This document shows, piece by piece, positions 1 to 34,476 of a stretch of DNA of 34,528 nucleotides. The position numbers and the translations under genes are program-made. The number at the start of each line of letters is the position of its first letter. Position 1 is the stretch's first letter. Origin of the DNA: Pseudomonadales bacterium (GTDB lineage Bacteria > Pseudomonadota > Gammaproteobacteria > Pseudomonadales > DC-out160). Location of the stretch: contig JAESQG010000566.1 in NCBI GenBank assembly GCA_016765265.1, positions 1 through 34,528 of the forward strand. The letters are read 5' to 3'. Under the pieces are notes generated by a model. The model was not told the origin of the DNA. It made no database searches and worked only from the letters and a program-made list of their open reading frames with translations.

Positions 1-1
1 A

Positions 2-2579: not shown

Positions 2580-2812
2580 GTTAGTGTTTGCGGCTGTAGG
2601 GCATCAATCGCGTATATGCCGTTTATAAGCTGTATTAATAGAGAGTTGTTAATAAGTTTTATAGCGCTTTGACAGTAATTATGAAACATAAGTTTTGATT
2701 CGAGCTAATTCTGGGCATTAGGTTTCATAACGAAAGCTTCAGCTAATAAGGGTTATGCAAGATTGTTTTTGAAATTGTGTATTGAAATTGTTTTAGAGAA
2801 AGGTAACAACAA

Positions 2813-3094: not shown

Positions 3095-3201
3095 AACTCT
3101 TTCGTGAGATATTTTTCTAGTGATAAAAATATTCACAAACCTTTGACTATCACTTTGACTAAATCTATTCGTATTCATAGCTACTCCAATCTATTCTTAA
3201 A

Positions 3202-4029: not shown

Positions 4030-4065
4030 TTTATTTCTCCTGTGATAATAAACATATTGAGTATA

Positions 4066-4082
4066 AAGCATTTAGTATGCCG
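4066..4082 (-). promoter_or_regulatory. sigma-54 (-24/-12) promoter candidate for NAS A
   Basis: The minus strand reads CGGCAT-ACTAA-ATGCTT. GG is at 4081/4080 and GC at 4069/4068, exactly 10 nt apart. The element lies about 40 nt upstream of ATG 4029, and a sigma-54 activator gene is divergent 150 bp away. Confidence 0.6.
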
Positions 4083-4223
4083 AATATTCACTATTTCATA
4101 AATACAGTATTTTCAATGGGTTAGAATATTACAGAGAAAAGATGGATAATTATTTTGACTTCAGTCGTTTAATTATTACTAATAATATCTCTATATTTTC
4201 TCTATTGATTATAGGCAATTATA

Positions 4224-15041: not shown

Positions 15042-15088
15042 TTTATTATTTCCAATTAAAATAATTGATATCACATGCTAGTAGTCAT

Positions 15089-15105
15089 ATGGTAGCACAA
15101 GCTTC
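15089..15105 (+). promoter_or_regulatory. 17-nt motif ATGGTAGCACAAGCTTC, copy 1 (divergent sulfatase intergenic region)
   Basis: It is identical to 30305-30321. A near-identical inverted copy lies at 15164-15180. Confidence 0.35.
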
Positions 15106-15163
15106 CAGCATGTAACTAAAATGCTGATTATAGAATATAATATGAAAAAATTCACAACAAGCT

Positions 15164-15180
15164 AGAAGCTTGTACTACAT
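15164..15180 (-). promoter_or_regulatory. inverted near-copy of the sulfatase-associated motif
   Basis: The minus strand reads ATGTAGTACAAGCTTCT. GTAGTACAAGCTTC matches GTAGCACAAGCTTC at 13 of 14 positions. It is oriented toward the minus-strand sulfatase. Confidence 0.3.
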
Positions 15181-15287
15181 AAATATTTCAATTTAAAATT
15201 TTATTATCAAGATTGAGACATTCATTGCAATCTATGAAATATCACTATAACCATTTATACTTTTGATCACAATAATGAGGAACAATC

Positions 15288-16655
15288 ATGTCGGAGAAAC
15301 CAAACATAATTTTAATCAATTGCGATGACCTAGGTTATGGTGACCTAGCCTGTTATGGATCAAAAGTTAATAAGACTCCAGCACTTGATAAGCTGGCAGC
15401 CGAAGGAATTAAATTCACTGATTTTTATATGACATCACCTGTCTGCTCACCTTCTAGAGGTTCCATGCTAACAGGCTGCTATCCTCCAAGAATAGGTTTT
15501 GGATCTTTTGTGAATGGCGGCTGGGTATTATTTCCAGGTGACGCATTAGGATTACATGAAGATGAAATTACGATTGCAAAATTATTAAAACAAGCAGACT
15601 ATCAAACTAAGATAGTTGGCAAATGGCACTGCGGAGACCAAAAAGAATTTCTACCAATACGACATGGGTTTGATAGTTATTATGGCATACCCTATAGTAA
15701 TGACATGGGACGCCAAAATGCCGATGATAAACAACCACCCCTACCTCTTTTAAAAGATGAAGAAGTCATCCAAGAACAACCAGATCAAAGAGGAATAACC
15801 GAGCGATACACCGAGGAATGCGTTTCTTTTATTCGAGATAATAAAGACAAACCATTCTTTTTATACCTAGCCCATATGTATGTTCATTTACCCATTTATG
15901 TACCAAAACAATTTCTCGATAAAGCTGAAAATGGACCTTATGGTGCTGCCGTTGAACACATTGATTGGGTTACTGCTGTTCTAATGGATGAACTTAAAAG
16001 GCAAGGCATAGACGATAATACATTAATCGTCTTTACCAGCGACAATGGATCTCGCGCTCAAGGGGAAGGTGGCAGCAATGCTCCACTAAGAGGACGTAAA
16101 ACCCAAACCTGGGAAGGTGGCCAAAGATTACCATGCATTATGCGTTGGCCAAGAAAAATAAAATCAGGTCTCGTCAATAAAGAAATCACCTCATCTATGG
16201 ATTTCTATAAAACATTCGCTGCCCTGGCAGGTGTAGAAATACCAACAGATAGAATTATTGATGGTAAAGATATTCGACCAATGCTTTTTAATGAGCCAGA
16301 TGCCAAAAGTCAATACGATGCTTTTTTTTATTATAAATGCAATGATTTAGAAGCCGTTCGCTCTGGAAAATGGAAGCTACATGTGTCAAGAGACAAAGTA
16401 AAGGTTGAAGAATTATACAATTTAGAGTCTGACATAGGCGAACAAACAAACCTCTTTAATCAAGAACCTGAAATAGTCAAAGACTTAATGATAAAAATTA
16501 AAGCATGTCAAAAAGATATCGGTGATGAAGCCGCTGGTATAAAAGGGGAGAATATACGCCCTATCGGAAAAGTTGACAGCCCTGATACGCTAACTCACTA
16601 CGATCCCGAGCATCCATACATTATTGCATTATACGATTTAAAAGAACGTGGTTAG
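15288..16655 (+). CDS. sulfatase (formylglycine type); no signal peptide
   Basis: PNIILINCDDLGYGD, the CSPSRGSMLTG motif, TSDNG and GGQRLP are present. A GAGGA Shine-Dalgarno sequence precedes the ATG. Confidence 0.9.
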   Translation: MSEKPNIILINCDDLGYGDLACYGSKVNKTPALDKLAAEGIKFTDFYMTSPVCSPSRGSMLTGCYPPRIGFGSFVNGGWVLFPGDALGLHEDEITIAKLLKQADYQTKIVGKWHCGDQKEFLPIRHGFDSYYGIPYSNDMGRQNADDKQPPLPLLKDEEVIQEQPDQRGITERYTEECVSFIRDNKDKPFFLYLAHMYVHLPIYVPKQFLDKAENGPYGAAVEHIDWVTAVLMDELKRQGIDDNTLIVFTSDNGSRAQGEGGSNAPLRGRKTQTWEGGQRLPCIMRWPRKIKSGLVNKEITSSMDFYKTFAALAGVEIPTDRIIDGKDIRPMLFNEPDAKSQYDAFFYYKCNDLEAVRSGKWKLHVSRDKVKVEELYNLESDIGEQTNLFNQEPEIVKDLMIKIKACQKDIGDEAAGIKGENIRPIGKVDSPDTLTHYDPEHPYIIALYDLKERG

Positions 16656-16720: not shown

Positions 16721-17896
16721 CTAAGCAAGAACAAGTTCATGTTCAACACCAAAGTAACACATTTCATCTACACTCATTGGTCTACTTGATTCACGAATAA
16801 AATCACCAATATAGGCTTCCTGCATTTCTAAAACAAAATAGTTGTACAATGTTTTTCTCCCAACTCTTGCTGTTGTATTTCTACCAGCAATTATTTTTTC
16901 TTCAGCTTTACCAAGATCTAGTTTTAATAAGACGGCAGGAGCTCCTTGAACCCTTCCACAAGGCTTAGAGTCACCAATTACTTCAAAACATAAAAGTCTT
17001 TTGTAATAGCCAACATGTCGAGGGTTAACCTCAATCAACATATGATCAGATGCAAGGTTTTTATATGCATGTATATAAACAAAGTTCATAAGATTTTTAA
17101 TTAGGTTTCGAGAGTTCCTATAGCTTTCATCAACAACCAATCGAGTTATCTCCACCATTTTTTTATTTTGATTATTCAACTCACTTAATTCGTCTTTAAA
17201 TATTTTCTGACAAGGAATATCGCCATGAACATTTGACACTACTGAAATAGAAGCCACAGAATTTCCATTTTCGTCTTCTGCTAAAAAAGTAATTGTATCC
17301 GGCCTTGCATCGTCACTATTAACAAATAATTTATTTCGATCTTGAGATGAATAGCCACACTGACCATATACTTTTTGAGATAATTGATAAACTTTCTCTC
17401 TATCAACTCGATTAGAAGCCACACTAATTCTAAAGTTGATCTTTTCAGATATCTCCCATTTTGGAGAACCAATTTCTACTTCTTCTTTTAATACCCATAG
17501 TGCTTGAGAAGTTGCTGAACGTTTTTTCTCTTTGATTTGATGCTTTTTCTCAATCTCATCTCGCACTTCAATTTTTTCACTCTTCAATACCTGTTTTAAT
17601 TTTCCGCCTGAGAGAAAAATATCCTCTCTATCCTTTGCACCCAATTGAATTAAAAAATCATGAACAATACATTTATCAGATATAGAAGTTAACACTAATG
17701 AAAGACTAACGACTAAAGCTCCCAAATTCCAATAAGGGTTGTACATACTCATGAGTAGAAAAATAGAAATTAAAAACCCACTGATTAGTCTTCCATATCT
17801 ATCCACACTCCAGTGACTAAAACTTTTAGACAAAGCTGCTTTAAAACCATTTAAATGATTGTTCAGTTTTGGGGTCTGAATCGCTGAAATACTCAT
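16721..17896 (-). CDS. membrane-anchored FeeM-type N-acyl amino acid synthase (NAS paralog B): DUF2892/YgaP-like two-helix N-terminus plus NAS domain
   Basis: The N-terminus has VDRYGRLISGFL (the DRxxRxxxG signature), two hydrophobic helices, and SDKCIVHDFLIQLG. The C-terminal part carries NAS motifs INFRISVASNRVDREKVYQLSQKVY, VEITRLVVDESYR and EVNPRHVGYYKRLLCFEVIG. A GGGAGA Shine-Dalgarno sequence precedes the ATG. Confidence 0.7.
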   Translation of the reverse strand: MSISAIQTPKLNNHLNGFKAALSKSFSHWSVDRYGRLISGFLISIFLLMSMYNPYWNLGALVVSLSLVLTSISDKCIVHDFLIQLGAKDREDIFLSGGKLKQVLKSEKIEVRDEIEKKHQIKEKKRSATSQALWVLKEEVEIGSPKWEISEKINFRISVASNRVDREKVYQLSQKVYGQCGYSSQDRNKLFVNSDDARPDTITFLAEDENGNSVASISVVSNVHGDIPCQKIFKDELSELNNQNKKMVEITRLVVDESYRNSRNLIKNLMNFVYIHAYKNLASDHMLIEVNPRHVGYYKRLLCFEVIGDSKPCGRVQGAPAVLLKLDLGKAEEKIIAGRNTTARVGRKTLYNYFVLEMQEAYIGDFIRESSRPMSVDEMCYFGVEHELVLA

Positions 17897-17935: not shown

Positions 17936-17951
17936 TGCAAATCACAAGCCA
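17936..17951 (-). promoter_or_regulatory. sigma-54 (-24/-12) promoter candidate for NAS B
   Basis: The minus strand reads TGGCTT-GTGAT-TTGCA, close to the consensus TGGCAC-N5-TTGCW. GG is at 17950/17949 and GC at 17938/17937, 10 nt apart. The element is about 40 nt upstream of ATG 17896. Confidence 0.7.
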
Positions 17952-18030
17952 AATTTCAATAAATCGTAAGTTCCTAATTTTAAAAGAGTTATGATAAATG
18001 CTCAACATTTAGCACTGGAAATAATTGACT

Positions 18031-18124: not shown

Positions 18125-20422
18125 ATGAGTTTTATTGATGCATGGTTAAATGAGGATCAAACAGCCATGGACAATCTCCTAAAAAAGAGTTCCAAAAATA
18201 AAAAACTCCACCAAGCTTACGAGGCAATAATAAATTCCAACAATTCAGATTCATTGAAATTCAAATCGTTAATCAATGTTATTGAAGACCCACCTGATGA
18301 CCTTGAAATTTATTCTCTTCTACTTTACTTAGCAGCAGACGTGGCCTATGCCACCAACAATTTTTCCGAATTAAATAGAATAATTCAAATCTATCAAAAT
18401 CTAGATCTTTCAAAAATAAAAAGCATATGTAAAAGTCTATTTTACTTATCATTAGCACGCCTAGAATTATCTAAAAATATGTCTGACCAACAACTTGAAT
18501 CAGAAATAAAAGCAGAAAGTCTATATCCAAAAGGGTCAATACGGTGGTATAAAATGAAGGCGAAAGTGACCTTAGGATGCATACTCCACAAAAAGGAATA
18601 CGATATTTCAAAGGCAATTAAAATATTAAAAGGATACCCTCAATTCTCTGAATCAACCTTTCCACCTGAATACCTTCAAGCAAGATATTATGAATCAATT
18701 GGAAAGTTATCATTGGCCTATCAGGAAATTAACAAGATTAAAAACATAGCCATATTTGGAAAGTTTGGAGAAAATATATTCTCACAAAAAGTAAAACTTT
18801 TGTGGAGAGCTGGAAAAATTGAAGAAGGTGATATAGAGCTAGAAAAATATTTGAACATGTACCCAGAATTAATCGGCAATAGATCCGGCAAGTTTTTATT
18901 AGCAGAAAGAAGCATGCTATTAAATGATTCAAATGGTACAAAACAGCATTTAAAGGAAATCTTAGCTGACAAAAAGGTTTTATCGCTTAGTAGATTTTGG
19001 GCGAATTATTTATTGCTTTGCGCAGAGTTAGCTCAACGACAAACAGTATCCGCTCGCAGAATATTAAATACAATGGATCCAGAAGGAACCAATAAGGGAC
19101 TTTTTACAGAGTGGGTAAGATTATATACTCAGGAAGACAATTACAGAAAAGCAGCCTATTATTTCAAGAAGATGCAAGAAGATCGTCCAAATTATCTTTT
19201 AGAGTTTCATTATGCTCACGAAATGAGAGCTTCACAGATCACAAAATTAATATTGACGATCAATGATGAAGAGTTCAATGAAGTAAAGAGTGTTATAGAA
19301 AAACCACACTATAAAATCGATGACACTAAAGACTCTTTTGAAAATTTCATAGGAACCTCAGAAAGTATTAACACCGTAAAAGAAAACATACAGAAATATG
19401 CCAATCAATCAGCACCCGTTTTAATTACAGGCGCAACTGGTACAGGAAAAGAAGAAACAGCCAAACTACTTCATAAACTTTCTGATAGGTCAAAAGAACC
19501 TTTTATTCCTGTCAACTGTGGAGCCATATCCAACACCTTAATGGAAGCAGAATTATTTGGCTATAAAAAAGGAGCATTTACAGGTGCCATGAAAGATCAT
19601 AAAGGTCTCTTTGAATCTGCAGGCAAAGGCACCATTTTTCTTGATGAGATCAGCTCTATGCCCATGCCCTTACAAGCTTCTCTTTTACGAGTATTAGAAA
19701 ATATGATCGTCAGACCAGTAGGAAGTACAAAATTTATTCCTATTGAGGCAAGAGTTATTGCGGCGACAAATATTAGCCTGGAAATATTATTAGAACAAAA
19801 AACATTTCGCATGGATCTTTACTTTCGCCTTAATAGATTACAAATCAATCTACCTTCTCTTCAAGATAGAAGAGATGACATTCCTCTTTTAATTCAACAC
19901 TTTTTGGGCCATCATTTTAATCTTTCAGACACAACCATAGATAAAAATTTATTGGATGCAATGCAAGAGCATTCTTGGCCTGGTAATATCAGAGAATTAA
20001 AAAATGAAATCGAAAGAATGGCCATTATTACCGGCAATAATAAATTGATTACAAATGAGCTTGTAAATTTTAAGAGTTCCGAAATAAAAGAGAATATTGC
20101 ACCAATTGATATAAAACAAAAATCCTTCGTTTCAGATGAGAATAAAATCACTCCAATGACACAAGAAAATATTTATTCGCCACCTAATATCTCTTTAGAA
20201 AAAGGTGTGAAAAATTATAGCGAATATAGAAGGCAAGAATTACGACAATTATTCCAACAACACCGCTTATTAACACGAGCTATGGTTGTTCGGTTTTTAG
20301 GATGTGCTGCCAATACTGCTGCGAAAGACTTGAAGAGTTTAGAAACAGCAGGTTACTTAAAAAAGGTAATTCCTACCGATTCTCCAAGATCTTCCTATTA
20401 CATATTAAATGATAAAAATTAA
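18125..20422 (+). CDS. sigma-54-dependent transcriptional activator (bEBP 2), same architecture as bEBP 1
   Basis: Walker A GATGTGKE (about 19430-19453), GAFTGA (19571-19588), IFLDEISS, and EAELFGY are present. The C-terminus LTRAMVVRFLGCAANTAAKDLKSLETAGYLKKVIPTDSPRSSYY aligns with the bEBP 1 tail. The N-terminal domain is helical. Confidence 0.85.
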   Translation: MSFIDAWLNEDQTAMDNLLKKSSKNKKLHQAYEAIINSNNSDSLKFKSLINVIEDPPDDLEIYSLLLYLAADVAYATNNFSELNRIIQIYQNLDLSKIKSICKSLFYLSLARLELSKNMSDQQLESEIKAESLYPKGSIRWYKMKAKVTLGCILHKKEYDISKAIKILKGYPQFSESTFPPEYLQARYYESIGKLSLAYQEINKIKNIAIFGKFGENIFSQKVKLLWRAGKIEEGDIELEKYLNMYPELIGNRSGKFLLAERSMLLNDSNGTKQHLKEILADKKVLSLSRFWANYLLLCAELAQRQTVSARRILNTMDPEGTNKGLFTEWVRLYTQEDNYRKAAYYFKKMQEDRPNYLLEFHYAHEMRASQITKLILTINDEEFNEVKSVIEKPHYKIDDTKDSFENFIGTSESINTVKENIQKYANQSAPVLITGATGTGKEETAKLLHKLSDRSKEPFIPVNCGAISNTLMEAELFGYKKGAFTGAMKDHKGLFESAGKGTIFLDEISSMPMPLQASLLRVLENMIVRPVGSTKFIPIEARVIAATNISLEILLEQKTFRMDLYFRLNRLQINLPSLQDRRDDIPLLIQHFLGHHFNLSDTTIDKNLLDAMQEHSWPGNIRELKNEIERMAIITGNNKLITNELVNFKSSEIKENIAPIDIKQKSFVSDENKITPMTQENIYSPPNISLEKGVKNYSEYRRQELRQLFQQHRLLTRAMVVRFLGCAANTAAKDLKSLETAGYLKKVIPTDSPRSSYYILNDKN

Positions 20423-21785: not shown

Positions 21786-21857
21786 CTCCCCCGACTGGAT
21801 TCGAACCAGTGACCAAGTGATTAACAGTCACCTACTCTACCGCTGAGCTACAGGGGA
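21786..21857 (-). tRNA. tRNA-Asn (anticodon GTT)
   Basis: The reverse complement folds as a cloverleaf: acceptor UCCCCUG/CGGGGGA, D stem GCUC/GAGU, anticodon stem GGUGA/UCACU with loop CUGUUAA, T arm ACUGG-UUCGAAU-CCAGU, discriminator G. It closely resembles E. coli tRNA-Asn. CCA is not encoded. Confidence 0.9.
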
Positions 21858-22222: not shown

Positions 22223-23461
22223 ATGAATCAACTTCCAAGAATTGTTATAACTGGCATTGGCTTAACGGCACCAAACGGCAATCAACTAGACGAATATAGA
22301 AATAATATCCTCGCAGGGAAATCAGGGGTTACCACAATTGATACTCATTACATGGGTGAATTAATTGCTGGGTGTTGCGATTTCGACACATTCCAATACC
22401 AAAAGAAAAAAGAAGTAAGAAGAGGTACTCGTGCTGGGTCCATTTCCATTTTCTGTGCAAATGAAGCGATTAAAAATGCTACCATTCAATTCGAAAATAT
22501 TGATAAAAGTAGAGTCGGTGTTTATATAGGAATTACCGAACATGGAAATGTAGAAACAGAAAACGAAATTTATAATATATCCCAATTTGGTTATGACACT
22601 AAATTTTGGTCACATCATCACAACCCTAGAACTGTTGCTAATAGCCCTGCTGGAGAAGTCACTTTAAATTTAGGGATTACAGGGCCACATTATTGTCTCG
22701 GTGCTGCATGTGCCGCAGGAAATATTGGACTAATTCAAGGGGCTCAAATGTTACAATTGGGCGAAGTCGATTTAGCATTAGCCGGAGGTGTATCAGAAAG
22801 TGTGCATACCTTTGGAATTTTTGCTGCCTTTAAAAGTCAAGGTGCCCTTGCTGAAAATGATGATCCTGAAAAAGCTAGTCGACCTTTCGATGTTGACCGA
22901 AATGGAATTGTTGTTTCAGAAGGCGGCTGCATCTATACTCTAGAAAGATTGGATGATGCGCTAAAAAGAAATGCACATATTTACGGCGAAATAGTTGGTC
23001 ATGCAATCAACAGTGATGCCACAGATTTTGTTTTGCCAAATCCCAAAAGACAAGGCGAATGCGTACAGTTAGCTCTGAATAAAGCCGGTTTAACTCCGAA
23101 TGATATTAATATAGTAAATACTCATGCCACATCAACTCCTCAAGGAGATATTCAAGAATGTGAAATGATTCGTAAGATATTTGGAAATAGTCCAAACACA
23201 TTCATCAATAATACAAAAAGTTTCATTGGCCATTGCATGGGCGCAGCTGGAACATTAGAATTAGCCGGAAATTTGCCCTCATTTGAGGATAATTTAGTTC
23301 ATCAGACAATCAATGTTGATAATTTAGATCCAGCATGTAATATTCAGAACTTAGTTATAAATGAACCCAGAAAAGTTGATAGCGTCAATTATATTCTAAA
23401 TAATTCATTTGGAATGGTCGGTATTAATTCTGTGTTAATTATTAAAAATTATAAAGAATAA
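22223..23461 (+). CDS. beta-ketoacyl-ACP synthase, KAS I/II (FabF/FabB-like, Cys-His-His type)
   Basis: RIVITGIGLTAPNG N-terminus, active-site Cys in LGAACAAGNIG, and His motifs NTHATSTPQGD and GHCMGAAG. Confidence 0.85.
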   Translation: MNQLPRIVITGIGLTAPNGNQLDEYRNNILAGKSGVTTIDTHYMGELIAGCCDFDTFQYQKKKEVRRGTRAGSISIFCANEAIKNATIQFENIDKSRVGVYIGITEHGNVETENEIYNISQFGYDTKFWSHHHNPRTVANSPAGEVTLNLGITGPHYCLGAACAAGNIGLIQGAQMLQLGEVDLALAGGVSESVHTFGIFAAFKSQGALAENDDPEKASRPFDVDRNGIVVSEGGCIYTLERLDDALKRNAHIYGEIVGHAINSDATDFVLPNPKRQGECVQLALNKAGLTPNDINIVNTHATSTPQGDIQECEMIRKIFGNSPNTFINNTKSFIGHCMGAAGTLELAGNLPSFEDNLVHQTINVDNLDPACNIQNLVINEPRKVDSVNYILNNSFGMVGINSVLIIKNYKE

Positions 23462-23494
23462 GAGTAATTTAATTCCAAGAAAGGTTTAAGTCAA

Positions 23495-23746
23495 ATGACA
23501 GAAGAAGAGGTTCGGTCAGCAGTTGTTAAAATCATTGAAGATGTTGCCCCAGATGAAGATTTATCAGAAATTGACGATAATAAAGCCTTACGTGATCAAA
23601 TCGAATTGGACTCAATGGATTTTCTAGACATTGTTATGGAACTAAGAAAACGTTACAGCGTTGAAGTCCCGGAAGCAGAATACCCCGAATTAAATTCTCT
23701 CGCAAGTTGTGTTACATATTTAACACCAAAATTAAAAGACAAATAA
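23495..23746 (+). CDS. acyl carrier protein
   Basis: It is 83 aa and acidic, with the phosphopantetheine-attachment motif IELDSMDFLDIV. Confidence 0.85.
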   Translation: MTEEEVRSAVVKIIEDVAPDEDLSEIDDNKALRDQIELDSMDFLDIVMELRKRYSVEVPEAEYPELNSLASCVTYLTPKLKDK

Positions 23747-23802
23747 TTACTAGCAGCCGGCAAGCATTTAACTTACCGGCAACCTTAACTAAATAAATTA
23801 GC

Positions 23803-25197
23803 ATGCACTATGACGCCATAATCATTGGAGCAGGAATGTCCGGGATAGCTGCCGGAATTCGCTTAGCAATGTTTGATAAAAAGGTGTGCATATTAGAAAG
23901 CCATTATGTGATTGGCGGACTAAACTCCTTTTATAATATGAAAGCTCGAAAATTTGATGTTGGTTTACATGCCGTCACAAACTATGTACCTAGAGGCACC
24001 AAGGGTGCGCCACTAACTAAGTTATTTCGCCAGTTAAGAATTCCATATGAAGATTTTAAATTAAAACCTCAAAATTATTCAGAAGTTGTTTTCCCAAATA
24101 AGAGGATAACTTTTACAAATGATCCTAAACATCTGGAAGAATCTATTGCTAAAGAATTCCCTCATCAGATAGATCAATATATCAAACTTATCGAATTTAT
24201 TTTAAGTTATGATAATTTGACACTTGATAAAGTAGAGACACAAACAGCGCGAGAGTTCTTAAATGAAGTCTTTACCGACCAGACCCTCATTGAGATGATT
24301 CTATGCCCATTAACCTATTATGGCAGTGCCATAGAAAACGATATGGAATTAGGCCAATTTGTGACTATGTATAAAAGTATTCTCCTAGAAGGCTTTGCTA
24401 GACCAGATGAAGGCGTTAGACAAATATTAAAAGTTTTGAAAAAAAAATACAAAGAAGTTGGCGGTGAACTTAAATTAAGAAATGGCGTTACTAAATTAAT
24501 TAGAAAAAATGAATTAATTACAGAAATACATACCGAAAAAGAGGAAATTCTCACGGCTGATTTAATCATTTCTTCGGCTGGTTACCTTAATACTTTAAAT
24601 TTAATAGATGGCTATGAACCCCAAACCCCTCAAAAGTTTACCGGCATGATGAGTTTCATGGAAAGCATATCTTGTCTTTCAAAGCCACAAACAGACTTTA
24701 ACTATGATGCTTCCATTACATTTTTTAATACCCGTGAAAATTATTTATATGAAGACGCCAAGGATTTCATTGATCCCTGTAGTGGAGTTATCTGCAGCCC
24801 AGGAAACTATCAACTGGATAAACCCATCGATGAGCCAGTGATCCGCATCACCAATATTGCAAATTTTAAATTATGGGAAGATTTAAAAACAAATGATATT
24901 GATAAATATTATCATCAAAAAGAAGACTCGTACCAAAGATCGTTAAAAGAAGTTTTTAAATTTAAAGATGATTTCACAAGTGCTGTAACCTTCACTGATA
25001 TTTTTACTCCTCATACTATTAAAAGATATACGGGCCACATCAACGGAGCCGTATATGGCTCACCGGTTAAAACCAAAACGGGTAAAACCCCCTTCGATAA
25101 TCTAGTAATTTGCGGAACTGACCAAGGGTTTCTTGGCATTATTGGGGCTATCCTAAGTGGCATATCAATCTCTAACTTATATGGTCTTGTGAAATAA
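23803..25197 (+). CDS. FAD/NAD(P)-dependent oxidoreductase, phytoene-desaturase (CrtI)-like family
   Basis: N-terminal dinucleotide fold YDAIIIGAGMSGIAAGIRLA...ILESHYVIGG. Its length of about 460 aa is typical of amine-oxidase/CrtI-like flavoproteins. Confidence 0.7.
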   Translation: MHYDAIIIGAGMSGIAAGIRLAMFDKKVCILESHYVIGGLNSFYNMKARKFDVGLHAVTNYVPRGTKGAPLTKLFRQLRIPYEDFKLKPQNYSEVVFPNKRITFTNDPKHLEESIAKEFPHQIDQYIKLIEFILSYDNLTLDKVETQTAREFLNEVFTDQTLIEMILCPLTYYGSAIENDMELGQFVTMYKSILLEGFARPDEGVRQILKVLKKKYKEVGGELKLRNGVTKLIRKNELITEIHTEKEEILTADLIISSAGYLNTLNLIDGYEPQTPQKFTGMMSFMESISCLSKPQTDFNYDASITFFNTRENYLYEDAKDFIDPCSGVICSPGNYQLDKPIDEPVIRITNIANFKLWEDLKTNDIDKYYHQKEDSYQRSLKEVFKFKDDFTSAVTFTDIFTPHTIKRYTGHINGAVYGSPVKTKTGKTPFDNLVICGTDQGFLGIIGAILSGISISNLYGLVK

Positions 25198-25497: not shown

Positions 25498-25537
25498 AAA
25501 TAATAGTCAGGATTCCACTATTAATATCCTTATAGTT
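25498..25537 (+). promoter_or_regulatory. candidate ECF-type promoter of the sigma/anti-sigma operon (shared motif, copy 1)
   Basis: AAATAATAGTCAGGAT-N13-TCCTTATAGTT ends 25 nt before ATG 25563. It has the same sequence and spacing as 27797-27835. Confidence 0.5.
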
Positions 25538-25562
25538 AAAAGAGAAACCTCTCAAGTAGAAA

Positions 25563-26075
25563 ATGATGACCAAAAGAGCTCAAATATTAAACAAGTTCAT
25601 GAAGGATCAGGCAAAATTCAAAGCATTTGCTTATACCATGACATTAGACTGGTCAATTGCAGAAGATGCAACTCAGGAAACAGCCGTTTATATTTGTGAT
25701 CACTGGGAAAAATTCAAACTGGGCACCAATTTTAATGCCTGGGCACGCACACTTATCAAAAACAGATGTCGAGAGTTATTACGTAAAGAATACATGGAGC
25801 AGAAAAAGATTCATAAGATCGCCGAAGTAATAGAAGACACTGTCTGGGATCAAGTTGAAAATATTGATGGAGAAAAAATAAATGCTTTACATAGTTGTGT
25901 AGAAAAACTTCCGGCAAAAACAAAAAAAGTGTTCATGATGTTTTATCAAGAAAAAATTAAATGCCAGATAATTTCTGACTTTTTAAAAATAACTGAAGAA
26001 GCGACATATAAGATATTAAGTCGCACAAGGCGAAGTCTAAAAACCTGTATTACAAATCAAATGAAAGAGCTTTAG
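25563..26075 (+). CDS. ECF-family RNA polymerase sigma factor
   Basis: Region 2 (DATQETAVYICDHWEKF...FNAWARTLIKNRCRELLRKE) and region 4 (LPAKTKKVFMMFYQEKIKCQIISDFLKITEEATYKILSRTRRSL) are both present. Confidence 0.85.
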   Translation: MMTKRAQILNKFMKDQAKFKAFAYTMTLDWSIAEDATQETAVYICDHWEKFKLGTNFNAWARTLIKNRCRELLRKEYMEQKKIHKIAEVIEDTVWDQVENIDGEKINALHSCVEKLPAKTKKVFMMFYQEKIKCQIISDFLKITEEATYKILSRTRRSLKTCITNQMKEL

Positions 26076-26080
26076 AGAAA

Positions 26081-27631
26081 ATGAATAACCAAACAGAATA
26101 TTTCAACCTACTATTAGAAAAATATATTGCGAATGATCTATCAGATAATGAAAGTCTGAAACTAAAAAAATTGCTTTCAAACAATATGAATTATCAAAAG
26201 AAATTTGCAGAGGCGCTAACTTTCGAAGCAACCATACAAAATGTTATGAATGACAAAAATGCTGCTCTGAAAGAAGCTGAACAAAATGGAAAAATAATTC
26301 CATTTAAAAGCAAAACAAAACATCGAAGTAGAAGATTTCAAAATCAAAAACAAGAATCTAAAACAAATAAAATTCTAATTGCCATAGCAGCAATATTTGC
26401 AATATGTATTACTGGATGGATATACAAAGACACTCTAACTCAATACAACAATATAGCTATGGATGTTAAAATTGATGCCATAGGACAAGTGCAATTCACA
26501 AGAAATAATAAAAACACAAATTTATATTCCTTATCTCAATTAAAACCAGGCGATATTTTAGAAACAAAACAAAGCGAATATATAAAAATTATGACTAAAG
26601 ATGGCTCTAGCATTTTAGTCAATGAAAACACAAAAATTGTTGTGGGTGAAACTCGTTTAAATGTCCTAAAAGGTGATATTTACGCTAATATACAAAAAGG
26701 TGAAATAAATTATTTTAAAAATTATAGTACCGATCAGCAGCACTCATTTTCCATTCAAGGTACTATTTTTGAGATTTCAAATGATACACAAAATAATACT
26801 TCTAGACTTTCAGTTGAAGAGGGGCAAGTTTTATTCGCAAGAAATAAACAACACAAAATTATATCAAGCAGATATTCAATCATATCGAATAGCTTAAATG
26901 GATTTGGAGAAAAAAGAAAACTTCTAAAAAATGAAATTATTGCACCTTGGATAAGCTACTATTCTTATTTAAAAAATTCTGACGTTATTTTTATTGATAA
27001 TTTTGATTCAAAATCAATTAGAAAGGACTGGACCATTACTAAAACCGGTCAGTGTGAAATAACATATCCAAAATTTAAATCTGTTGCAGAGTTAAAGGTT
27101 AAAGGCTTATCAAAAATAATAATATCTTCGCCAATTATTAAGCTAGATGATCAACCAATGCATATACGTTTTAGTGAGGATCAAATATATGGAGAAGGTC
27201 CTTTTGAATATGGCTTTGCTATTTATATGAATGGAGAATTACAATTGGAACAATCTATAAGGGTTAAAAGAAAATCAAACAATAAATTTCACTTCATTGA
27301 AGTTATTATAGTAAATGGTGAAAAACAAAAGGGGAAGGGATCATTAGTAAGCGCCCAACTGCCAATAATTGAGACATCTTTTCATATATCACCTAGGCCA
27401 AAAGACGACACTGTTGATAAAAAAGTAACCATAGATTATAAACAATCAATCAGTATGCCCGAGATTACGAGCATTATCAAGGGTGAAAATATTCAAATTA
27501 AATACTTCCTAAAGGGGCTTTCAAAAGACGCAAAAGCAAATTTTGGTTTAGATGCTTTTATAGTTACAAAAAGTAAAAAGCTAACCAACAAAATTATCGC
27601 TGAGTTTATACCCTATATCAAAATTGAATAA
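26081..27631 (+). CDS. FecR-type transmembrane anti-sigma factor with an additional C-terminal domain of unknown function
   Basis: It starts 5 nt after the sigma gene stop. It has an N-terminal anti-sigma helix region, one TM segment (ILIAIAAIFAICITGWIY), and a FecR-like beta region (GDILETKQSEYIKIMTKDGSSILVNENTKIVV ... FSIQGTIFEISN ... VEEGQVLF). About 230 further residues are unassigned. Confidence 0.7.
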   Translation: MNNQTEYFNLLLEKYIANDLSDNESLKLKKLLSNNMNYQKKFAEALTFEATIQNVMNDKNAALKEAEQNGKIIPFKSKTKHRSRRFQNQKQESKTNKILIAIAAIFAICITGWIYKDTLTQYNNIAMDVKIDAIGQVQFTRNNKNTNLYSLSQLKPGDILETKQSEYIKIMTKDGSSILVNENTKIVVGETRLNVLKGDIYANIQKGEINYFKNYSTDQQHSFSIQGTIFEISNDTQNNTSRLSVEEGQVLFARNKQHKIISSRYSIISNSLNGFGEKRKLLKNEIIAPWISYYSYLKNSDVIFIDNFDSKSIRKDWTITKTGQCEITYPKFKSVAELKVKGLSKIIISSPIIKLDDQPMHIRFSEDQIYGEGPFEYGFAIYMNGELQLEQSIRVKRKSNNKFHFIEVIIVNGEKQKGKGSLVSAQLPIIETSFHISPRPKDDTVDKKVTIDYKQSISMPEITSIIKGENIQIKYFLKGLSKDAKANFGLDAFIVTKSKKLTNKIIAEFIPYIKIE

Positions 27632-27796
27632 AATTAATCATTTCTTAAGGCTTGTCCTAAGCATTGAAATACTAAACCAATGAGGGGCACAATTGTTTCA
27701 CAATTTAAATACTAGCTACATTCTTTAGCCAAACAAAATATTAGTTTCGTATTGTTAATAATATTGCCGATTTCAAAATATATAAAAATTTTAAGC

Positions 27797-27835
27797 AAAT
27801 AATGGTCAGGATCTACCCTCAACTTTCCTTTAGTT
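27797..27835 (+). promoter_or_regulatory. candidate ECF-type promoter of the NAS-oxidase fusion gene (shared motif, copy 2)
   Basis: AAATAATGGTCAGGAT-N13-TCCTTTAGTT ends 36 nt before ATG 27872. Confidence 0.5.
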
Positions 27836-27871
27836 TATGTAAGAGGAATTTAATTTAGCTGAGGAAATCAA

Positions 27872-30301
27872 ATGACATCATTCGAAAAACAATCAGTCAC
27901 TAGCCATGTTGCTTCAGGAAATCAATTAAATAGACGATCGTCAAAAAGACCATCATCCGTCAGCTCAATCATAAAAAAGTTTGAGCTCGATGAATACTCA
28001 ACTAATATAATTGAAAAAGATAAATTCAATTTCTCAATTACTTCCAATAAAGAAGATCGAAAAAAATGCTATGAACTTGTCACAGATGTATACATGAAAA
28101 AAGGTTTTTTAATCGATAACGATTATCACTCTGTTATTTCTAATTATGACAACCAAATAACAACCGTTATCGTTTCCGCAAAGGACTCTTTAAATAATGT
28201 CATTGCCACCGTAACAATCGTACTAAATATTTCTGATTTACCTTGCTTCCAAACTTTTCCTAACGAAACAGAAAAATTAAAAGACAAAACTCTTGCTGAA
28301 GTTACTAGACTTGTCATTCATGATGATTACCGACAAAGTAAAGATCTTTTAATAGGTCTATTTAATTATGTATTTATCTATGCTTATAAAGTTTTCAAAT
28401 GTGATCACACATTAATAGAAGTTAACCCAAGACATGTACAATATTATAAACGATTTCTTTATTTCAGACCACTGTCTGACAAACAAGAATGTGCTAGAGT
28501 ACAAAATGCACCTGCCATTCTTTCTATCATTGATTGGGATACATTGAATACAATAGAAAATTTTCCACACAAAATTAAAAACTTAAAAAGATCCTTCTAT
28601 AGTGGATTACATTTACAAAAAACAAAATTAAATTCCATAGAAGAAGATATCAAAGAAGCAACTAAATTTAAAAAATATCAAACATCTAAAATCCAGAAAG
28701 ACATCTTTCAAAAATTCTATGACATCGTCGGCTTCGAAAATGTTAAAATAGATTTAGATACACGTTTTGAATATGGAAGAAGTACACTCGAATCAGGAAC
28801 TCTTCCTAAATTAATCATCCAGCCTGAAAATCATGATCAAGTAAAAGAAATCATGTCTCTTGCGAACGAAATTGTATGGGAAGTCCATCCCATCAGTACA
28901 GGTAAAAACTGGGGTTATAGTGATGCTTGTGCATTAAACAATGGAGTCGTTTTATTAGACTTAAAAAGAATGAATAAGATCTTTTCCTTCGATGCAGAAT
29001 TAGGAACAGTAGTCGTAGAGCCAGGGGTAACACAAGGTCAAGTGGCTAAATTTCTTGAAGACAATAATCATCCATTCATTATGGATGCTACCGGAGCTGG
29101 ACCAGACACAAGCTTGATTGGCAATACAGCCGAAAGAGGTTTTGGCCATAGTCCAAATGGTGACCGCTTTGCTAATAGTTGTGGCTATGAAATCGTTTTG
29201 GCAAACGGAGAAGTTCTTCAGACAGGTTTTGGTAGTTTCGAAAACTCTAAAGTGACTGACGTTTATAAATGGGGTGTTGGTCCTAGTCTTGATGGTTTAT
29301 TCACACAATCAAACTTAGGTGTCATCACTAAAATGACTTTTTGGTTAATGCCAAAACCAGAATGTTTCAAAGTGGCTTACTTCATGTTAAAGAACAATTC
29401 AGATATCGCTGAATTCATTGACCGCATTAGACCTTTGAGAATGGATGGCACATTAAAATCCGTCATTCATATTGGTAATGATCTTAGAATACTTTCTATG
29501 TCACAATCATATCCATGGGAAGAAATGAAAGGCGCTACTCCATTGGCTCCGAAATTAAGAGAGAAAATGATTGAAAGAAATGGTCTTGGTGCTTGGTCTG
29601 GAACAGCTGGGCTTTATGGATCAAAAGAACAAGTTAAAGCTGATATTAAAAAATTAAAAAAAGCTTTGAAATCTTTCAAAGGCATGAAAAAAATGATTAT
29701 TCTCGGCGAGAAACAAGTTAACTTGATCTCAGCAATTGGCCAAAAAATAAAAGACTATTCTTTTGGAAAAAAACTACACACTATTTCACATAAAATAAAA
29801 ATGGCTTTTGATCTATTAAAAGGTCAAAGTCCTGAAACATGCGTACAAGGTGGATTATGGCGCGTAAAAGATCAAAAGAAAAAAGACTCTATCAATTCAA
29901 GCAATCCATTAGATTATAAAGCTGGCTTTTATTGGATCTCTCCAATATTGCCAATGAAAGGTTCACACGTAACAGCCTTACAAAATTTAGTAGAGCCAAT
30001 TTTTAACTCATATGGATTTGATCTTCAACAAACATTAAGCATGACAAACGAAAGATCATTAAGTTCAGTGATGACAATTTCATTTGATAAGAAAAATAAA
30101 CAAGAAGCCTCAAATGCACGAAAATGTCATGATCAAGTTGTTGATGCCTTAACTGAAGCAGGATATATTATTTATAGAGCTGGTAACCACACAATGAAAA
30201 AACTTGATTGCCGAAAAGATGCATATCAGTCAGTTCTATCATCAATTAAGAATGCCTTAGATCCAAATAACATTCTAAGCCCAGGTAAATATAATATGTA
30301 A
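27872..30301 (+). CDS. fusion protein: FeeM-type N-acyl amino acid synthase (NAS paralog C, about aa 50-235) plus VAO/PCMH-type FAD-linked oxidase (about aa 290-809)
   Basis: NAS motifs: FNFSITSNKEDRKKCYELVTDVY, AEVTRLVIHDDYR, EVNPRHVQYYKRFLYF. Oxidase motifs: HPISTGKNWGYSDA, VVVEPGVTQGQV, LIGNTAERGFGHSPNGDRF, EIVLANGEVLQTGFG. These run collinear with the vanillyl-alcohol oxidase FAD-binding region as I recall it (ISIGRNSGYGG ... GNAVERGVGYTPYGDH ... VVLANGELLRTGMG). Confidence 0.75.
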   Translation: MTSFEKQSVTSHVASGNQLNRRSSKRPSSVSSIIKKFELDEYSTNIIEKDKFNFSITSNKEDRKKCYELVTDVYMKKGFLIDNDYHSVISNYDNQITTVIVSAKDSLNNVIATVTIVLNISDLPCFQTFPNETEKLKDKTLAEVTRLVIHDDYRQSKDLLIGLFNYVFIYAYKVFKCDHTLIEVNPRHVQYYKRFLYFRPLSDKQECARVQNAPAILSIIDWDTLNTIENFPHKIKNLKRSFYSGLHLQKTKLNSIEEDIKEATKFKKYQTSKIQKDIFQKFYDIVGFENVKIDLDTRFEYGRSTLESGTLPKLIIQPENHDQVKEIMSLANEIVWEVHPISTGKNWGYSDACALNNGVVLLDLKRMNKIFSFDAELGTVVVEPGVTQGQVAKFLEDNNHPFIMDATGAGPDTSLIGNTAERGFGHSPNGDRFANSCGYEIVLANGEVLQTGFGSFENSKVTDVYKWGVGPSLDGLFTQSNLGVITKMTFWLMPKPECFKVAYFMLKNNSDIAEFIDRIRPLRMDGTLKSVIHIGNDLRILSMSQSYPWEEMKGATPLAPKLREKMIERNGLGAWSGTAGLYGSKEQVKADIKKLKKALKSFKGMKKMIILGEKQVNLISAIGQKIKDYSFGKKLHTISHKIKMAFDLLKGQSPETCVQGGLWRVKDQKKKDSINSSNPLDYKAGFYWISPILPMKGSHVTALQNLVEPIFNSYGFDLQQTLSMTNERSLSSVMTISFDKKNKQEASNARKCHDQVVDALTEAGYIIYRAGNHTMKKLDCRKDAYQSVLSSIKNALDPNNILSPGKYNM

Positions 30302-30427: not shown

Positions 30428-31960
30428 ATGAGCAAAAAACCTTTAAATTTTATTATTATTACATCAGACCAACAACGTTGGGATTGTTTAGGGAAATTAA
30501 ATTCCTTAGTTCCAACACCTAATTTAGATAAATTAGCTGATGATGGAATACTTTTTACCGATGCCTACTGCCCTAGCCCAACCTGTACTCCATCAAGAGC
30601 CTCACTATTAACAAGTCAATTACCATCAAGACATGGTGCCTACAATATAGGTACATCCTTGGATATTGATACAAAAGGGATCGCGCATCAGTTCAATGAA
30701 AATGGCTATGCAACTTCATTAATTGGCAAAGCTCATTTCCAACAGTGTCATGGATGCCCAGATAGTTTAGAATCTGAACCTAAAGTTCATAACTGGGATT
30801 TTTTTCAAAACTGGAATGGCCCTTATTATGGATTCGAACATGTTGAATTATGTATTGGCCATACAAACGAAAAAAAATCCGGCGGCATGCACTTTGGTCT
30901 TTGGTTAAAAGAGCAAGGCATTGATTTAGAAAAATATTTTAATTACGGACAATTCGATGCCTTCTTTGGTCATGGTAAGTGGGATCTACCAGAAGAATTT
31001 CATAATTCAAAATGGATCGCGGACAAATCCATTGAATTCATTGATAAACAAATTGAAGCCGACAAATCATTTTTACTGTGGTCTAGTTTTCAAGACCCTC
31101 ATGCTCCATGTTGGGTTTCTTCACCATGGGATACAATAGTCAATCCTGATGATATCCCATTGCCAAAACAATTTCCAGATGATGCCAAAAACAAACCACC
31201 CTTCTATGCGCCGTTAGATAGCGAAGAAAAAAATGGGTATCCTGCTTACGACAAGGATGAAACAACCAAATGGAATCATAATTTTGGAATTCCCCATAGC
31301 TGGTTTAATGTTTTTAAAGAGCCTGAAGAAATAAAAAAAATCACCGCGCTTTACTATGGGATGATTGCCCTCATGGATCATCATATTGGTCGAATGATAG
31401 ATGCTTTAAAAGAAAAAGGGATCTACGACAATACCGTCATTGTTTTCACTTCAGACCATGGAGATTATTTAGGACATCATAATTTATGGAATAAAGGCCT
31501 TCACGCTTACGATGATATTCAAAAGGTACCTTTCATTGCCAAGGTACCTGGCAATAAAACCAAAGGCAAACAAAGCACTACTCTTCAAAATTTAATGGAT
31601 ATCGCACCTACCTTCAGTTCACTAGCCAACTTTGACATAAATCGAAACTATGAAGGTGTTGATCAATCAACTGTTTGGTCAGGCGAAAATAAAAAAGTTC
31701 AAGATTGGACCATGTGTGAGTTTCGTCCCAATGAAATGGATTATCTCCAACGAACATTTATCACTGACGAATACAAGCTTGTAGTTTATATGAAAAAAGA
31801 ATATGGTGAGTTATATGACCGCATCGAAGATCCTGATCAACAAAACAATCTTTGGGATCAATCTGATTTTCAAATATTAAAAGGAAAGCTACTTTTGAGA
31901 ATGGCATCAGCCGATATGGAACGGGAGCGACATTATCAGCCCAGGACATCCGGTGCATAA
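30428..31960 (+). CDS. sulfatase (formylglycine type); no signal peptide
   Basis: LNFIIITSDQQRWD, the CTPSRASLLTS motif and TSDHGD are present. Confidence 0.9.
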   Translation: MSKKPLNFIIITSDQQRWDCLGKLNSLVPTPNLDKLADDGILFTDAYCPSPTCTPSRASLLTSQLPSRHGAYNIGTSLDIDTKGIAHQFNENGYATSLIGKAHFQQCHGCPDSLESEPKVHNWDFFQNWNGPYYGFEHVELCIGHTNEKKSGGMHFGLWLKEQGIDLEKYFNYGQFDAFFGHGKWDLPEEFHNSKWIADKSIEFIDKQIEADKSFLLWSSFQDPHAPCWVSSPWDTIVNPDDIPLPKQFPDDAKNKPPFYAPLDSEEKNGYPAYDKDETTKWNHNFGIPHSWFNVFKEPEEIKKITALYYGMIALMDHHIGRMIDALKEKGIYDNTVIVFTSDHGDYLGHHNLWNKGLHAYDDIQKVPFIAKVPGNKTKGKQSTTLQNLMDIAPTFSSLANFDINRNYEGVDQSTVWSGENKKVQDWTMCEFRPNEMDYLQRTFITDEYKLVVYMKKEYGELYDRIEDPDQQNNLWDQSDFQILKGKLLLRMASADMERERHYQPRTSGA

Positions 31961-32973: not shown

Positions 32974-34476
32974 CTAGGCATCAACTTTAAAAGTAGCCGA
33001 TTTTACCTCTTCTCCAGTAAAATAATTCAATATTGATGGTGCATAACCATCTTTTGGTCTTGGTCGAAACACACCACCCTTAAACCCCAATTTAGCTTTA
33101 TTATTCCATGGTCGTTTTTCCCAACAGGGACCCCGCATCGGATCACGCTGTTTATAAAAATAATCAATTAATTCATCAAGCATAGCATCTCGTATATCAG
33201 AAAAATTTTCATCAAGAATAAGGTTTATTAATTCAGCTGAATCATTTTTTAAATCGTACAACTCATCCACATCATCAAGCAAATTAATTGATAACTTGTA
33301 ATCACCTTTAACAATACACCTAATAGGATGAAACCCATTCAATCCATCATGATCAACTTCAAAACGATTAAATTCAATAAATACCGATCGCTTTTCTTCT
33401 TCTTTTAATGTGGAGACAAGGCTCTTACCAGCAAAAATATCCGGGATATCAAGGTCGGCTAGCTCCAACATAGTCGGCAAAATATCAACATGACTAACAA
33501 GAGTATTGTTCTCCTGACAAAAGGAACCCCTATCAGGAAATTTAATCAGCAAAGGAATATGAGTAATCTCTTCATACATGACTGGACCTTTACCTTTTAA
33601 TCCATGCGCAGACATCATATCACCATGGTCTGAAGTGAAAATTATAATCGTATTATCTTTTGCATGTTGATCAATCGCCTTTAAAACCCTACCAATTTCA
33701 TTGTCAACAAAACTATTGCAACCAAAATACATTGGTTTCTTAACCTTTTTATTTCGTTCCGATACACCGGCATGTACGGCCCAATCTTTTTGTAATTGCG
33801 GTTTGCCTTCTAAAGAATCAAAGGCACCATCACCAATGTCATACTCAAACTCTTCAAATGATTCCACATATTCTGACGGACATGTAAATGGACCATGAGG
33901 CTCATCATAAGAGACCACTAATAAAAAAGGGTCTTCTTGACCATCTTGTTTACTTAGGAAATCAATCGCTCGATTACTAACTTGATGACCCCATGTCCAT
34001 TCGGATTTTATCGAATTCTCTTTTAAATCTGTCAAAGAATTTAATTGTTCTCGCCATAGTTTTTTTTCATTTTGACTTAACAAATTCATATGGTTACGAC
34101 CATCATACCAGTATTCATTATCCCACCCATCCGGACAAATTCCGCTTCCATAATAATCATGAGCGTCCAAGTGCCATTTACCTGTATAGGCTGTTTTATA
34201 GCCACCGTCACGAAAACGCTGACCCATCGTTTTTATATTATCCCCAATTGCTAAATGATTCGCCCAAGCGCCATTAAAATTACCATAATTTCCCGTAAAC
34301 AAAGCGCTTCGGGCTGGTGTACATAATGGACAAGTCGTATATGCCCTATTAAATTTAATGCCATCGGAAGCTAATTTATCCAAATTAGGAGTCATTAACC
34401 CTTTTTTTGCATAGGACTCCACCATGTTAACCCCTTGGGTATCAGTCATAATAAATACAAAATTAGGCTTCTTCAT
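32974..34476 (-). CDS. sulfatase (formylglycine type); no signal peptide
   Basis: PNFVFIMTDTQG, the CTPARSALFTG motif and TSDHGD are present. An AGGA sequence lies upstream of the ATG. Confidence 0.9.
   Translation of the reverse strand: MKKPNFVFIMTDTQGVNMVESYAKKGLMTPNLDKLASDGIKFNRAYTTCPLCTPARSALFTGNYGNFNGAWANHLAIGDNIKTMGQRFRDGGYKTAYTGKWHLDAHDYYGSGICPDGWDNEYWYDGRNHMNLLSQNEKKLWREQLNSLTDLKENSIKSEWTWGHQVSNRAIDFLSKQDGQEDPFLLVVSYDEPHGPFTCPSEYVESFEEFEYDIGDGAFDSLEGKPQLQKDWAVHAGVSERNKKVKKPMYFGCNSFVDNEIGRVLKAIDQHAKDNTIIIFTSDHGDMMSAHGLKGKGPVMYEEITHIPLLIKFPDRGSFCQENNTLVSHVDILPTMLELADLDIPDIFAGKSLVSTLKEEEKRSVFIEFNRFEVDHDGLNGFHPIRCIVKGDYKLSINLLDDVDELYDLKNDSAELINLILDENFSDIRDAMLDELIDYFYKQRDPMRGPCWEKRPWNNKAKLGFKGGVFRPRPKDGYAPSILNYFTGEEVKSATFKVDA

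Follow-up and report, generated by a model that had tools for sequence, protein, structure and literature searches.

Extracytoplasmic function (ECF) sigma factors were reportedly classified by Staron in 2009. Across the ECF groups, promoter motif and gene neighbourhood are in general conserved along the lines of sigma-factor phylogeny (Casas-Pastor 2021, PMC7826278). In E. coli, fecIR is not autoregulated and its target is the transporter gene fecA (PMC9249621). Genes for N-acyl amino acid synthases (NAS) have been found in pairs with genes for sigma-54 enhancer-binding proteins, and a link to PEP-CTERM/exosortase regulation has been made (Haft 2006, PMC1569441; also Craig, Cherry and Brady 2011, as cited in PMC7293339). 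The NAS clusters of the planctomycete Stieleria make N-acyl dehydrotyrosines, the stieleriacines (PMC7293339, PMC12479983). These two papers give no description of how the clusters are regulated, and the literature that mentions both 'N-acyl amino acid synthase' and 'sigma factor' seems to contain nothing on NAS regulation, as judged by titles and abstracts. Here we describe a locus on contig JAESQG010000566.1 (34,528 nucleotides, analysed as a whole and called the window below). In it the genes for an ECF sigma factor, a FecR-type anti-sigma factor and a fusion of a NAS with an oxidase (NAS-oxidase) follow one another, and one bipartite motif stands before both the sigma gene and the NAS-oxidase gene. 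The original prediction, made from the window alone, was that this motif is a shared ECF-type promoter linking the sigma operon and the NAS-oxidase gene. The proposal gains support from a footprint in four sigma lineages, from a second lineage in which the sigma/anti-sigma/NAS arrangement recurs with the motif before both the sigma and the NAS gene, and from a standalone oxidase gene of that second lineage that bears the motif too. The whole is best explained, with good though not overwhelming probability, if both sequences are promoters read by RNA polymerase with the ECF sigma factor of 25563-26075.

The elements of the locus are the following (domain matches from Pfam):

25498..25537, plus strand: promoter motif of the sigma/anti-sigma operon, with GTCAGGAT at 25506-25513 (likely -35) and TCCTT at 25527-25531 (likely -10)
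25563..26075, plus strand: ECF (group 4) sigma factor, 170 aa; Sigma70_r2 2.4e-11 (residues 18-76), Sigma70_r4_2 1.7e-5 (residues 107-159)
26081..27631, plus strand: FecR-type anti-sigma factor, 516 aa; FecR PF04773, 26.5 bits against a cutoff of 24 (residues 159-250)
27797..27835, plus strand: promoter motif of the NAS-oxidase gene, second copy, with GTCAGGAT at 27805-27812 and TCCTT at 27826-27830; top matrix match
27872..30301, plus strand: fusion of a FeeM-type NAS with a VAO/PCMH-type flavin adenine dinucleotide (FAD) oxidase, 809 aa; FeeM 8.3e-35, FAD_binding_4 2.6e-23, FAD-oxidase_C

Both copies of the motif were found where they had been predicted. In the first, the upstream block AAATAATAGTCAGGAT (25498-25513) is followed by the 13-nt spacer TCCACTATTAATA and by TCCTTATAGTT (25527-25537). 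In the second, AAATAATGGTCAGGAT (27797-27812) is followed by the 13-nt spacer CTACCCTCAACTT and by TCCTTTAGTT (27826-27835). Of the 16 positions of the upstream block, 15 are identical in the two copies. The full motifs end 25 nt before the ATG at 25563 and 36 nt before the ATG at 27872, in agreement with the 25-36 nt claimed; counted from the end of the core (GTCAGGAT-N13-TCCTT), the distances to the start codons are 31 nt (ECF sigma) and 41 nt (NAS-oxidase). Both copies lie on the coding strand. We take GTCAGGAT as the probable -35-side element and TCCTT(T) as the probable -10-side element, the centres of GTCA and CCTT being ~22 bp apart. Transcription start sites would then be expected near 25538-25541 for the sigma operon and near 27837-27840 for the NAS-oxidase gene, whose ATG is preceded by a GAGGAAA ribosome-binding site.

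When both strands of the window were searched for the core with two mismatches allowed, only these two matches were returned, and both were exact. By our own arithmetic from base composition, the exact 13-base core is expected by chance at ~1e-8 per position, or ~0.1 copies per 5-Mb genome. When a matrix was trained on sites outside this contig only, position 27805 came first in the window (25.6 bits) and 25506 second; in 100 shuffled sequences the maximum was 23.0 bits and the mean of the maxima was 13.5. Given the two exact cores and these scores, the match is far beyond chance.

Close homologs of the sigma factor were rare, with orthologs at 79, 62 and 60% identity. The closest (P0122, 79%; contigs L006/L007, from other samples and with different neighbours) has TAATGGTCAGGAT-TAAGGTATTTATG-TCCTTTATA at 31 nt before the ATG of its gene. 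The second (P0123, 62%; L008) has TGTCAGAAT-N13-ACCTTTAGT at 33 nt before the ATG. The third (60%; L128), recovered by a metagenome scan with the sigma alignment, has GGTCAAGAT-N13-CCCTTTCTT upstream of the sigma gene. Reduced to their cores, the sigma-gene sites in L006/L007, L008 and L128/L133 read GTCAGGAT, GTCAGAAT and GTCAAGAT, followed after N13 by TCCTT, ACCTT and CCCTT, respectively. Both blocks and the 13-nt spacing were therefore kept in four sigma lineages while the spacer sequences were unrelated, which points to a promoter recognised through two short elements. The six aligned sites from these lineages have GTCArrwT-N13-nCCTT in common. The end of the L006 contig (10040-10106), 185 nt past the anti-sigma gene, is a low-complexity stretch rich in CT/GT; its first letters, TGTCTCAGGAT, nearly match the upstream block.

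The motif was also found before NAS and oxidase genes elsewhere. In L128 and in the syntenic contigs L133/L134, a standalone FeeM NAS gene follows the anti-sigma gene, and its putative promoter in L128/L133 reads GGTCAGGTT-N13-TCCTTTAAGTT (the downstream block also given as TCCTTTAAG), 35 nt before the ATG. L133/L134 also encode, on the other strand and ~6 kb away from this NAS gene, a standalone oxidase (P0015) that shares 61% identity with the oxidase half of the window fusion; GTCAGATT-N13-TCCTTAAGG, with a TCCTTA block, lies just upstream of its start. The orthologous oxidase P0019 in L131/L132 (60-61% identical to the same half) has GTCAGGTT-N13-TCCTTAGGC immediately before its start, again with a TCCTTA block. 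Across ~170 kb of related loci, the motif occurred almost only before sigma, NAS and oxidase genes. A second matrix, built from the four sigma-gene promoters only and controlled with 30 shuffles, gave these scores:

Window 27805: 25.1 bits, the top match outside the training sites (best of 30 shuffles, 17.6 bits)
L128 8479: 18.5 bits, candidate NAS promoter
L133 18675: 18.5 bits, candidate NAS promoter
L133 9926: 16.3 bits, candidate oxidase promoter
L131 9651: 15.6 bits, candidate oxidase promoter
Control loci L002, L129 and L137: at most 11.7 bits, no match

Genes that are fused in the window are thus separate elsewhere, each preceded by the motif in L133. In L137 a NAS gene and an oxidase gene are adjacent, in that order, with a gap of 26 nt. 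Separate motif-bearing genes in one place, adjacent genes in another and a fusion in the window together support the view that NAS and VAO-type oxidase act in one pathway.

The sigma factor has the ECF architecture, with sigma-2 and sigma-4 as its only domains, and it scored 65.2 bits with TIGR02937 (sigma70-ECF; cutoff 42.9). Its best NCBIfam model was TIGR02989 (Rhodopirellula/Verrucomicrobium, of the Planctomycetes-Verrucomicrobia-Chlamydiae, or PVC, type), at 99 bits and under the cutoff of 124.55. By these scores it is classed as a relative of that family and not as a member. The anti-sigma gene starts 5 nt after the sigma stop codon, and the same pairing of sigma and anti-sigma genes was seen in L006, L128 and L133.

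The anti-sigma factor is colinear with its orthologs from L006 and L128. Its N-terminus is a helical anti-sigma region, and a long helix predicted at residues 95-122, with a hydrophobic run at ~104-121, is read as a single membrane span. The original prediction of a FecR-type anti-sigma factor with an extra extracytoplasmic domain of ~230 aa was borne out, in that a conserved C-terminal domain of ~245 aa (~270 to 516), extracytoplasmic by prediction, follows the FecR domain. This C-terminal domain had no sequence match in Pfam or the Protein Data Bank (PDB). It is rare, being found (as window 26900-27631) in five other clusters among 1.84 billion representative proteins, and a homolog search with the anti-sigma profile returned the query alone. 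With a six-sequence alignment as input, AlphaFold2 gave a model with a mean predicted local distance difference test score (pLDDT) of 68; the single-sequence model, with a pLDDT of 35, was unusable. In a Foldseek search with the former, the FecR part matched the Parabacteroides anti-sigma structures 4m0h/4m0n. The C-terminal beta-sandwich matched the carbohydrate-binding modules (CBM) CBM22 and CBM61, a porphyran-binding CBM, calreticulin and MAM domains. We regard the C-terminal domain, with the moderate reliability that such a model allows, as having a generic lectin-like fold.

In the NAS-oxidase, the FeeM domain (PF21926) scored 120.3 bits against a cutoff of 27 (residues 65-218), and the oxidase half scored 82.7 bits with FAD_binding_4 and 21.5 bits with FAD-oxidase_C. 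The closest solved relatives of the oxidase half were the p-cresol methylhydroxylase PchF (1wve/1dii, 2e-80), followed by vanillyl-alcohol and eugenol oxidases. By family membership the protein is a FeeM-type synthase joined to a 4-phenol-oxidising VAO/PCMH flavoprotein, with putative activity. Its start at 27872 is secure, since stop codons lie in frame upstream and the N-terminus aligns with those of two paralogs (P0001 and P0002). An Rfam scan of the region matched no family, which leaves no riboswitch or other RNA-leader explanation. A candidate sigma-54 relic upstream of the gene (GGGGCACAATTGTTTCA, ~27683-27699) was rejected; it does not have the -12 GC, and a consensus search did not return it.

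The following course of regulation is suggested. In the non-inducing state the anti-sigma factor, as a single-pass membrane protein of the FecR type, would hold the sigma factor through its cytoplasmic N-terminus. A cue outside the cytoplasm, sensed by the FecR domain and the rare beta-sandwich, would release the sigma factor, probably by regulated proteolysis as in other FecR-/RseA-type systems. The free sigma factor would transcribe its own operon, giving positive feedback, and would transcribe the adjacent NAS-oxidase gene from the second promoter copy. The product would probably be an N-acyl aromatic amino acid, whose 4-alkylphenol side chain the fused 4-alkylphenol-type flavin oxidase would then oxidise. 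Mode of release, signal and product are all inferred, and control of the NAS-oxidase by an envelope signal would follow from the domain architecture. What defines autoregulation of the ECF kind, a bipartite promoter at the sigma factor's own operon and at the genes of its regulon, is present here in the form of predicted sites. An autoregulated ECF sigma/anti-sigma system whose motif is undescribed, whose sensor domain is rare and whose target belongs to an unusual class is a well-supported prediction.

Several observations weigh against this account or narrow it. The sigma motif of L128 (position 6135) is 113 nt from the called ATG at 6274, compared with 31-33 nt in the other sigma lineages, and the same holds in L133; either a long leader or a mis-called start codon would account for this. 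Because the L006 and L008 contigs end too early and L128 and L133/L134 represent a single lineage, the genes behind the anti-sigma gene, and with them the link to NAS, are visible in two of the four sigma lineages only. The NAS half of the window protein shares only 31% identity with the L128 NAS, which is no closer to it than are the window's own NAS paralogs; the link between sigma factor and NAS may thus have been assembled more than once, by convergence or by gene replacement. At 16.3 and 15.6 bits, the two oxidase sites fall inside the range of the shuffled maxima, and they owe their weight to position and recurrence instead. The motif also lacks the 'AAC' (-35) and 'CGT' (-10) signatures that are frequent in many ECF groups. 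Finally, no terminator-like site was found in the 240-nt gap between the anti-sigma and NAS-oxidase genes, and the RNA fold of the gap was no stabler than that of shuffled sequence (z = -0.3). Read-through from the sigma operon may therefore also contribute to NAS-oxidase expression, or could suffice for it.

The last of these points belongs to an alternative in which the NAS-oxidase is expressed mainly by read-through, as the third gene of the sigma/anti-sigma transcript, and the second motif is a weak or vestigial duplicate. The three genes are on the same strand, and the likeness of the two window copies in the sequence before the core is unusually high, as a duplication would give. However, no other site in the window fits the cross-lineage consensus as well as the second copy does, and an equivalent second copy was kept before the NAS gene in L128/L133. 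In addition, the oxidase gene that bears the motif ~6 kb from the NAS gene is on the opposite strand, where read-through cannot serve it. We consider this alternative quite improbable. A somewhat better case, though still an unlikely one, can be made for a real cis-element that is read by something other than the adjacent sigma factor, either a paralogous ECF sigma factor or a transcription factor with a bipartite operator. PVC genomes carry dozens of ECF sigma factors, the motif is unlike textbook ECF promoters, the tie between sigma factor and sites is predicted from sequence only, and the first copy contains a short inverted repeat, AGGAT-N12-ATCCT. This repeat is absent from the other five sites, however, and the motif travels with the sigma gene in four lineages with different flanking genes. 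A promoter would explain better than an operator why the orientation is constant, why the unconserved spacer always measures 13 nt and why five of the six sites lie 31-41 nt ahead of the start codon (the L128 sigma site lies at 113 nt).

That the similarity is a coincidence without regulatory meaning, arising by chance or from a repeat, is close to refuted. AT-rich intergenic DNA gives many partial matches, and a scan of genome contigs with AATRGTCAGGAT-N13-TCCTT returned at least 119 scattered single matches in unrelated phyla, with the source genome not among the matches listed. However, we estimate that this 16.5-base pattern should occur by chance ~140 times in the ~1.2e12 bases scanned, so the scan is uninformative and not contrary. 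Against coincidence also stand the near-restriction of the motif in the related loci to sigma, NAS and oxidase genes, and the score of the window site, which no shuffle reached. Promoters read by the adjacent ECF sigma factor remain the reading that we prefer.

Other NAS genes of the window and of related contigs showed a different promoter type. The full-length relatives of the NAS-oxidase were just two, P0001 (70%) and P0002 (68%), by name proteins of one Planctomycetota metagenome-assembled genome (MAG). The gene for P0002 (L002, from the same metagenome) adjoins a divergent gene for a sigma-54 enhancer-binding protein and has a textbook TGGCTAGCCTATTGCTA promoter, and no ECF motif was found upstream of it. 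As this paralogous fusion has a sigma-54 promoter and lacks the motif, the motif tracks the sigma/anti-sigma pair and not the enzyme family. The comparison suggests that promoters were rewired between the fusion paralogs and that related synthase genes are wired to different sigma types. Two more NAS genes lie in the window:

3202-4071, minus strand: NAS1, with a divergent enhancer-binding protein at 4224-6602, plus strand; GG-N10-GC element tCGGCATACTAAATGCTt at 4066-4084, minus strand
16721-17896, minus strand: NAS2, with a divergent enhancer-binding protein at 18125-20422, plus strand; sigma-54 promoter TTGGCTTGTGATTTGCA at 17936-17952, minus strand, an exact YTGGC-N7-TTGCW

The NAS1 element, taken directly from the sequence, is weaker than the promoter of NAS2. 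Both enhancer-binding proteins carry Sigma54_activat domains. The sigma-54 control that the original prediction assigned to these two genes agrees with the presence, at each of them, of a candidate GG-N10-GC promoter and a divergent enhancer-binding protein, and the genes have the look of dedicated regulator-synthase pairs. No Pfam match was found for the N-terminal ~400 aa of the enhancer-binding proteins of NAS1, NAS2 and L002 (7495-12469), a part that is only weakly conserved among the three.

A second class of ECF sigma genes was found next to NAS, oxidase and fatty-acid desaturase genes in L129 (4369-21391), L136 (1008-11677) and L137 (7495-11671), and also in L138 and L139; L129 holds three tandem units of this class. 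In these sigma factors, of 478-529 aa, the sigma-2 and sigma-4 domains occupy the first ~190 aa, and ~300 aa extend beyond them at the C-terminus. The motif TGAAGAAww-N~15-CGTTACA/CATAATA/GGTTAwTA lies upstream of each long-sigma gene and of each target gene, in what is, judged by this layout, the same regulatory logic with a different sigma factor and a different motif. The long sigma factors of L129/L137 were considered as fused versions of the window pair and rejected as such; they showed no BLAST similarity to either the sigma or the anti-sigma factor and form a separate class.

Taken jointly, these arrangements permit a wider reading, which we hold to be doubtful but conceivable. The window system would be a signal-production switch, one of several interchangeable pairs of regulator and NAS functionally analogous to multiple LuxR/LuxI pairs, the others being the sigma-54 enhancer-binding protein with its NAS and the long C-terminally extended ECF sigma factor with its NAS/oxidase. 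The CBM-like domain would sense either a surface glycan or the lipoamino-acid product of the module itself, and the paralogs would have been rewired between sigma-54 and ECF control after duplication. Glycan sensing would fit the sulfatase-rich neighbourhood. Should the anti-sigma factor sense the lipoamino-acid product itself, the system would form an ECF-based autoinduction loop.

The window lies inside a 470-kb metagenomic scaffold (ENA ERZ23499281 scaffold_2). Directly upstream of the sigma gene is an apparent operon:

22223..25197, plus strand: FabF-like ketoacyl synthase, acyl carrier protein and phytoene-desaturase-like FAD enzyme

This operon may supply or modify the acyl chain used by the NAS. 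The matrix gave no match for the ECF motif in the region before it, and its genes were not conserved beside the sigma gene in L006 or L128. A tRNA gene (21786-21857, minus strand; Rfam RF00005, 67.9 bits) lies between a 394-aa open reading frame (ORF) of unknown function and this operon. Four sulfatase genes were found in the window (13422-16655, 30428-31960 and 32974-34476), and in L133 a sulfatase gene is directly upstream of the oxidase gene. The sulfatases fit a polysaccharide-degrading lifestyle of PVC type and may be related to the CBM-like sensor domain. The first part of the window (1-3100) has a GC content of ~50%, against ~33% in the rest, and encodes IscR (802-1293), a full IscS-like protein (1356-2579) and a second, truncated Aminotran_5 ORF (2813-3298). 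E. coli DNA was ruled out as its source. Horizontal acquisition could account for this segment, or else a chimeric assembly at a conserved gene.

If the promoter reading holds, GTCArrwT-N13-TCCTTw is a concrete promoter consensus for a small ECF clade, so far undescribed, from uncultured marine bacteria of low GC content, whose proteins have their closest paralogs under the label of a Planctomycetota MAG. It would also name a candidate regulatory input for NAS genes. The sigma factor and its two promoters would form a compact orthogonal expression switch, which could be used for the heterologous activation of this silent pathway.

Among the known systems, the NAS/sigma-54 pairs resemble the present one in having an adjacent, dedicated regulator, and two such pairs occur in the window itself and one at the fusion paralog in L002. 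They differ in that the regulator is not an ECF sigma/anti-sigma pair and the promoter is of another type. The NAS proteins matched the exosortase-associated model TIGR03694 only weakly, at 32 bits against a cutoff of 112. With the stieleriacine clusters the locus shares the presence, in a bacterium of PVC type, of several NAS paralogs accompanied by tailoring genes (desaturase, methyltransferase and oxidoreductase); the related locus L129 holds genes for NAS, oxidase, PhyH, methyltransferase and desaturase. Dehydrogenation of the stieleriacines has been proposed (PMC12479983) to involve an adenylyltransferase/cyclase and a nitroreductase, and not a VAO/PCMH flavoprotein.

The FecI/FecR/FecA system of E. 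coli and its Pseudomonas relatives (PMC9249621) is like the present one in the FecR domain of its anti-sigma factor. In both, the target lies directly downstream of the anti-sigma gene and has its own sigma-specific promoter, which in the window is predicted. The differences are that fecIR lacks the autoregulation to which the motif before the window sigma operon points, that FecR has no counterpart of the rare C-terminal beta-sandwich, and that the window sigma factor is matched best by TIGR02989 and not by a FecI model. No TonB-dependent receptor was found among the Pfam matches of 25 window ORFs (nearly all of the long ones) or in the annotation of L128/L133; as no such transducer is encoded nearby, the window system does not belong to the classical FecIRA type. 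Between fecR and fecA of E. coli, ~50 nt before fecA, stands ...GGAAAAT-N17-TCCTTTT..., and the TCCTTTT block, which we take to be the -10 element and treat as a lead only, resembles TCCTT(T) without implying more than resemblance.

The closest parallel in logic is offered by the autoregulated pairs of ECF sigma factor and membrane anti-sigma factor of the SigW/RsiW and SigE/RseA type. As in these, a two-domain sigma factor is encoded together with a single-pass anti-sigma factor, and a bipartite promoter of fixed spacing, here deduced from the sequence, stands before the pair's own operon and before a neighbouring gene. We could not assign GTCAGGAT-N13-TCCTT to one of the described ECF groups, in a comparison that did not include the group models. 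The known pairs act on envelope-stress or transport genes, whereas the predicted target here is a synthase of a natural product or signal.

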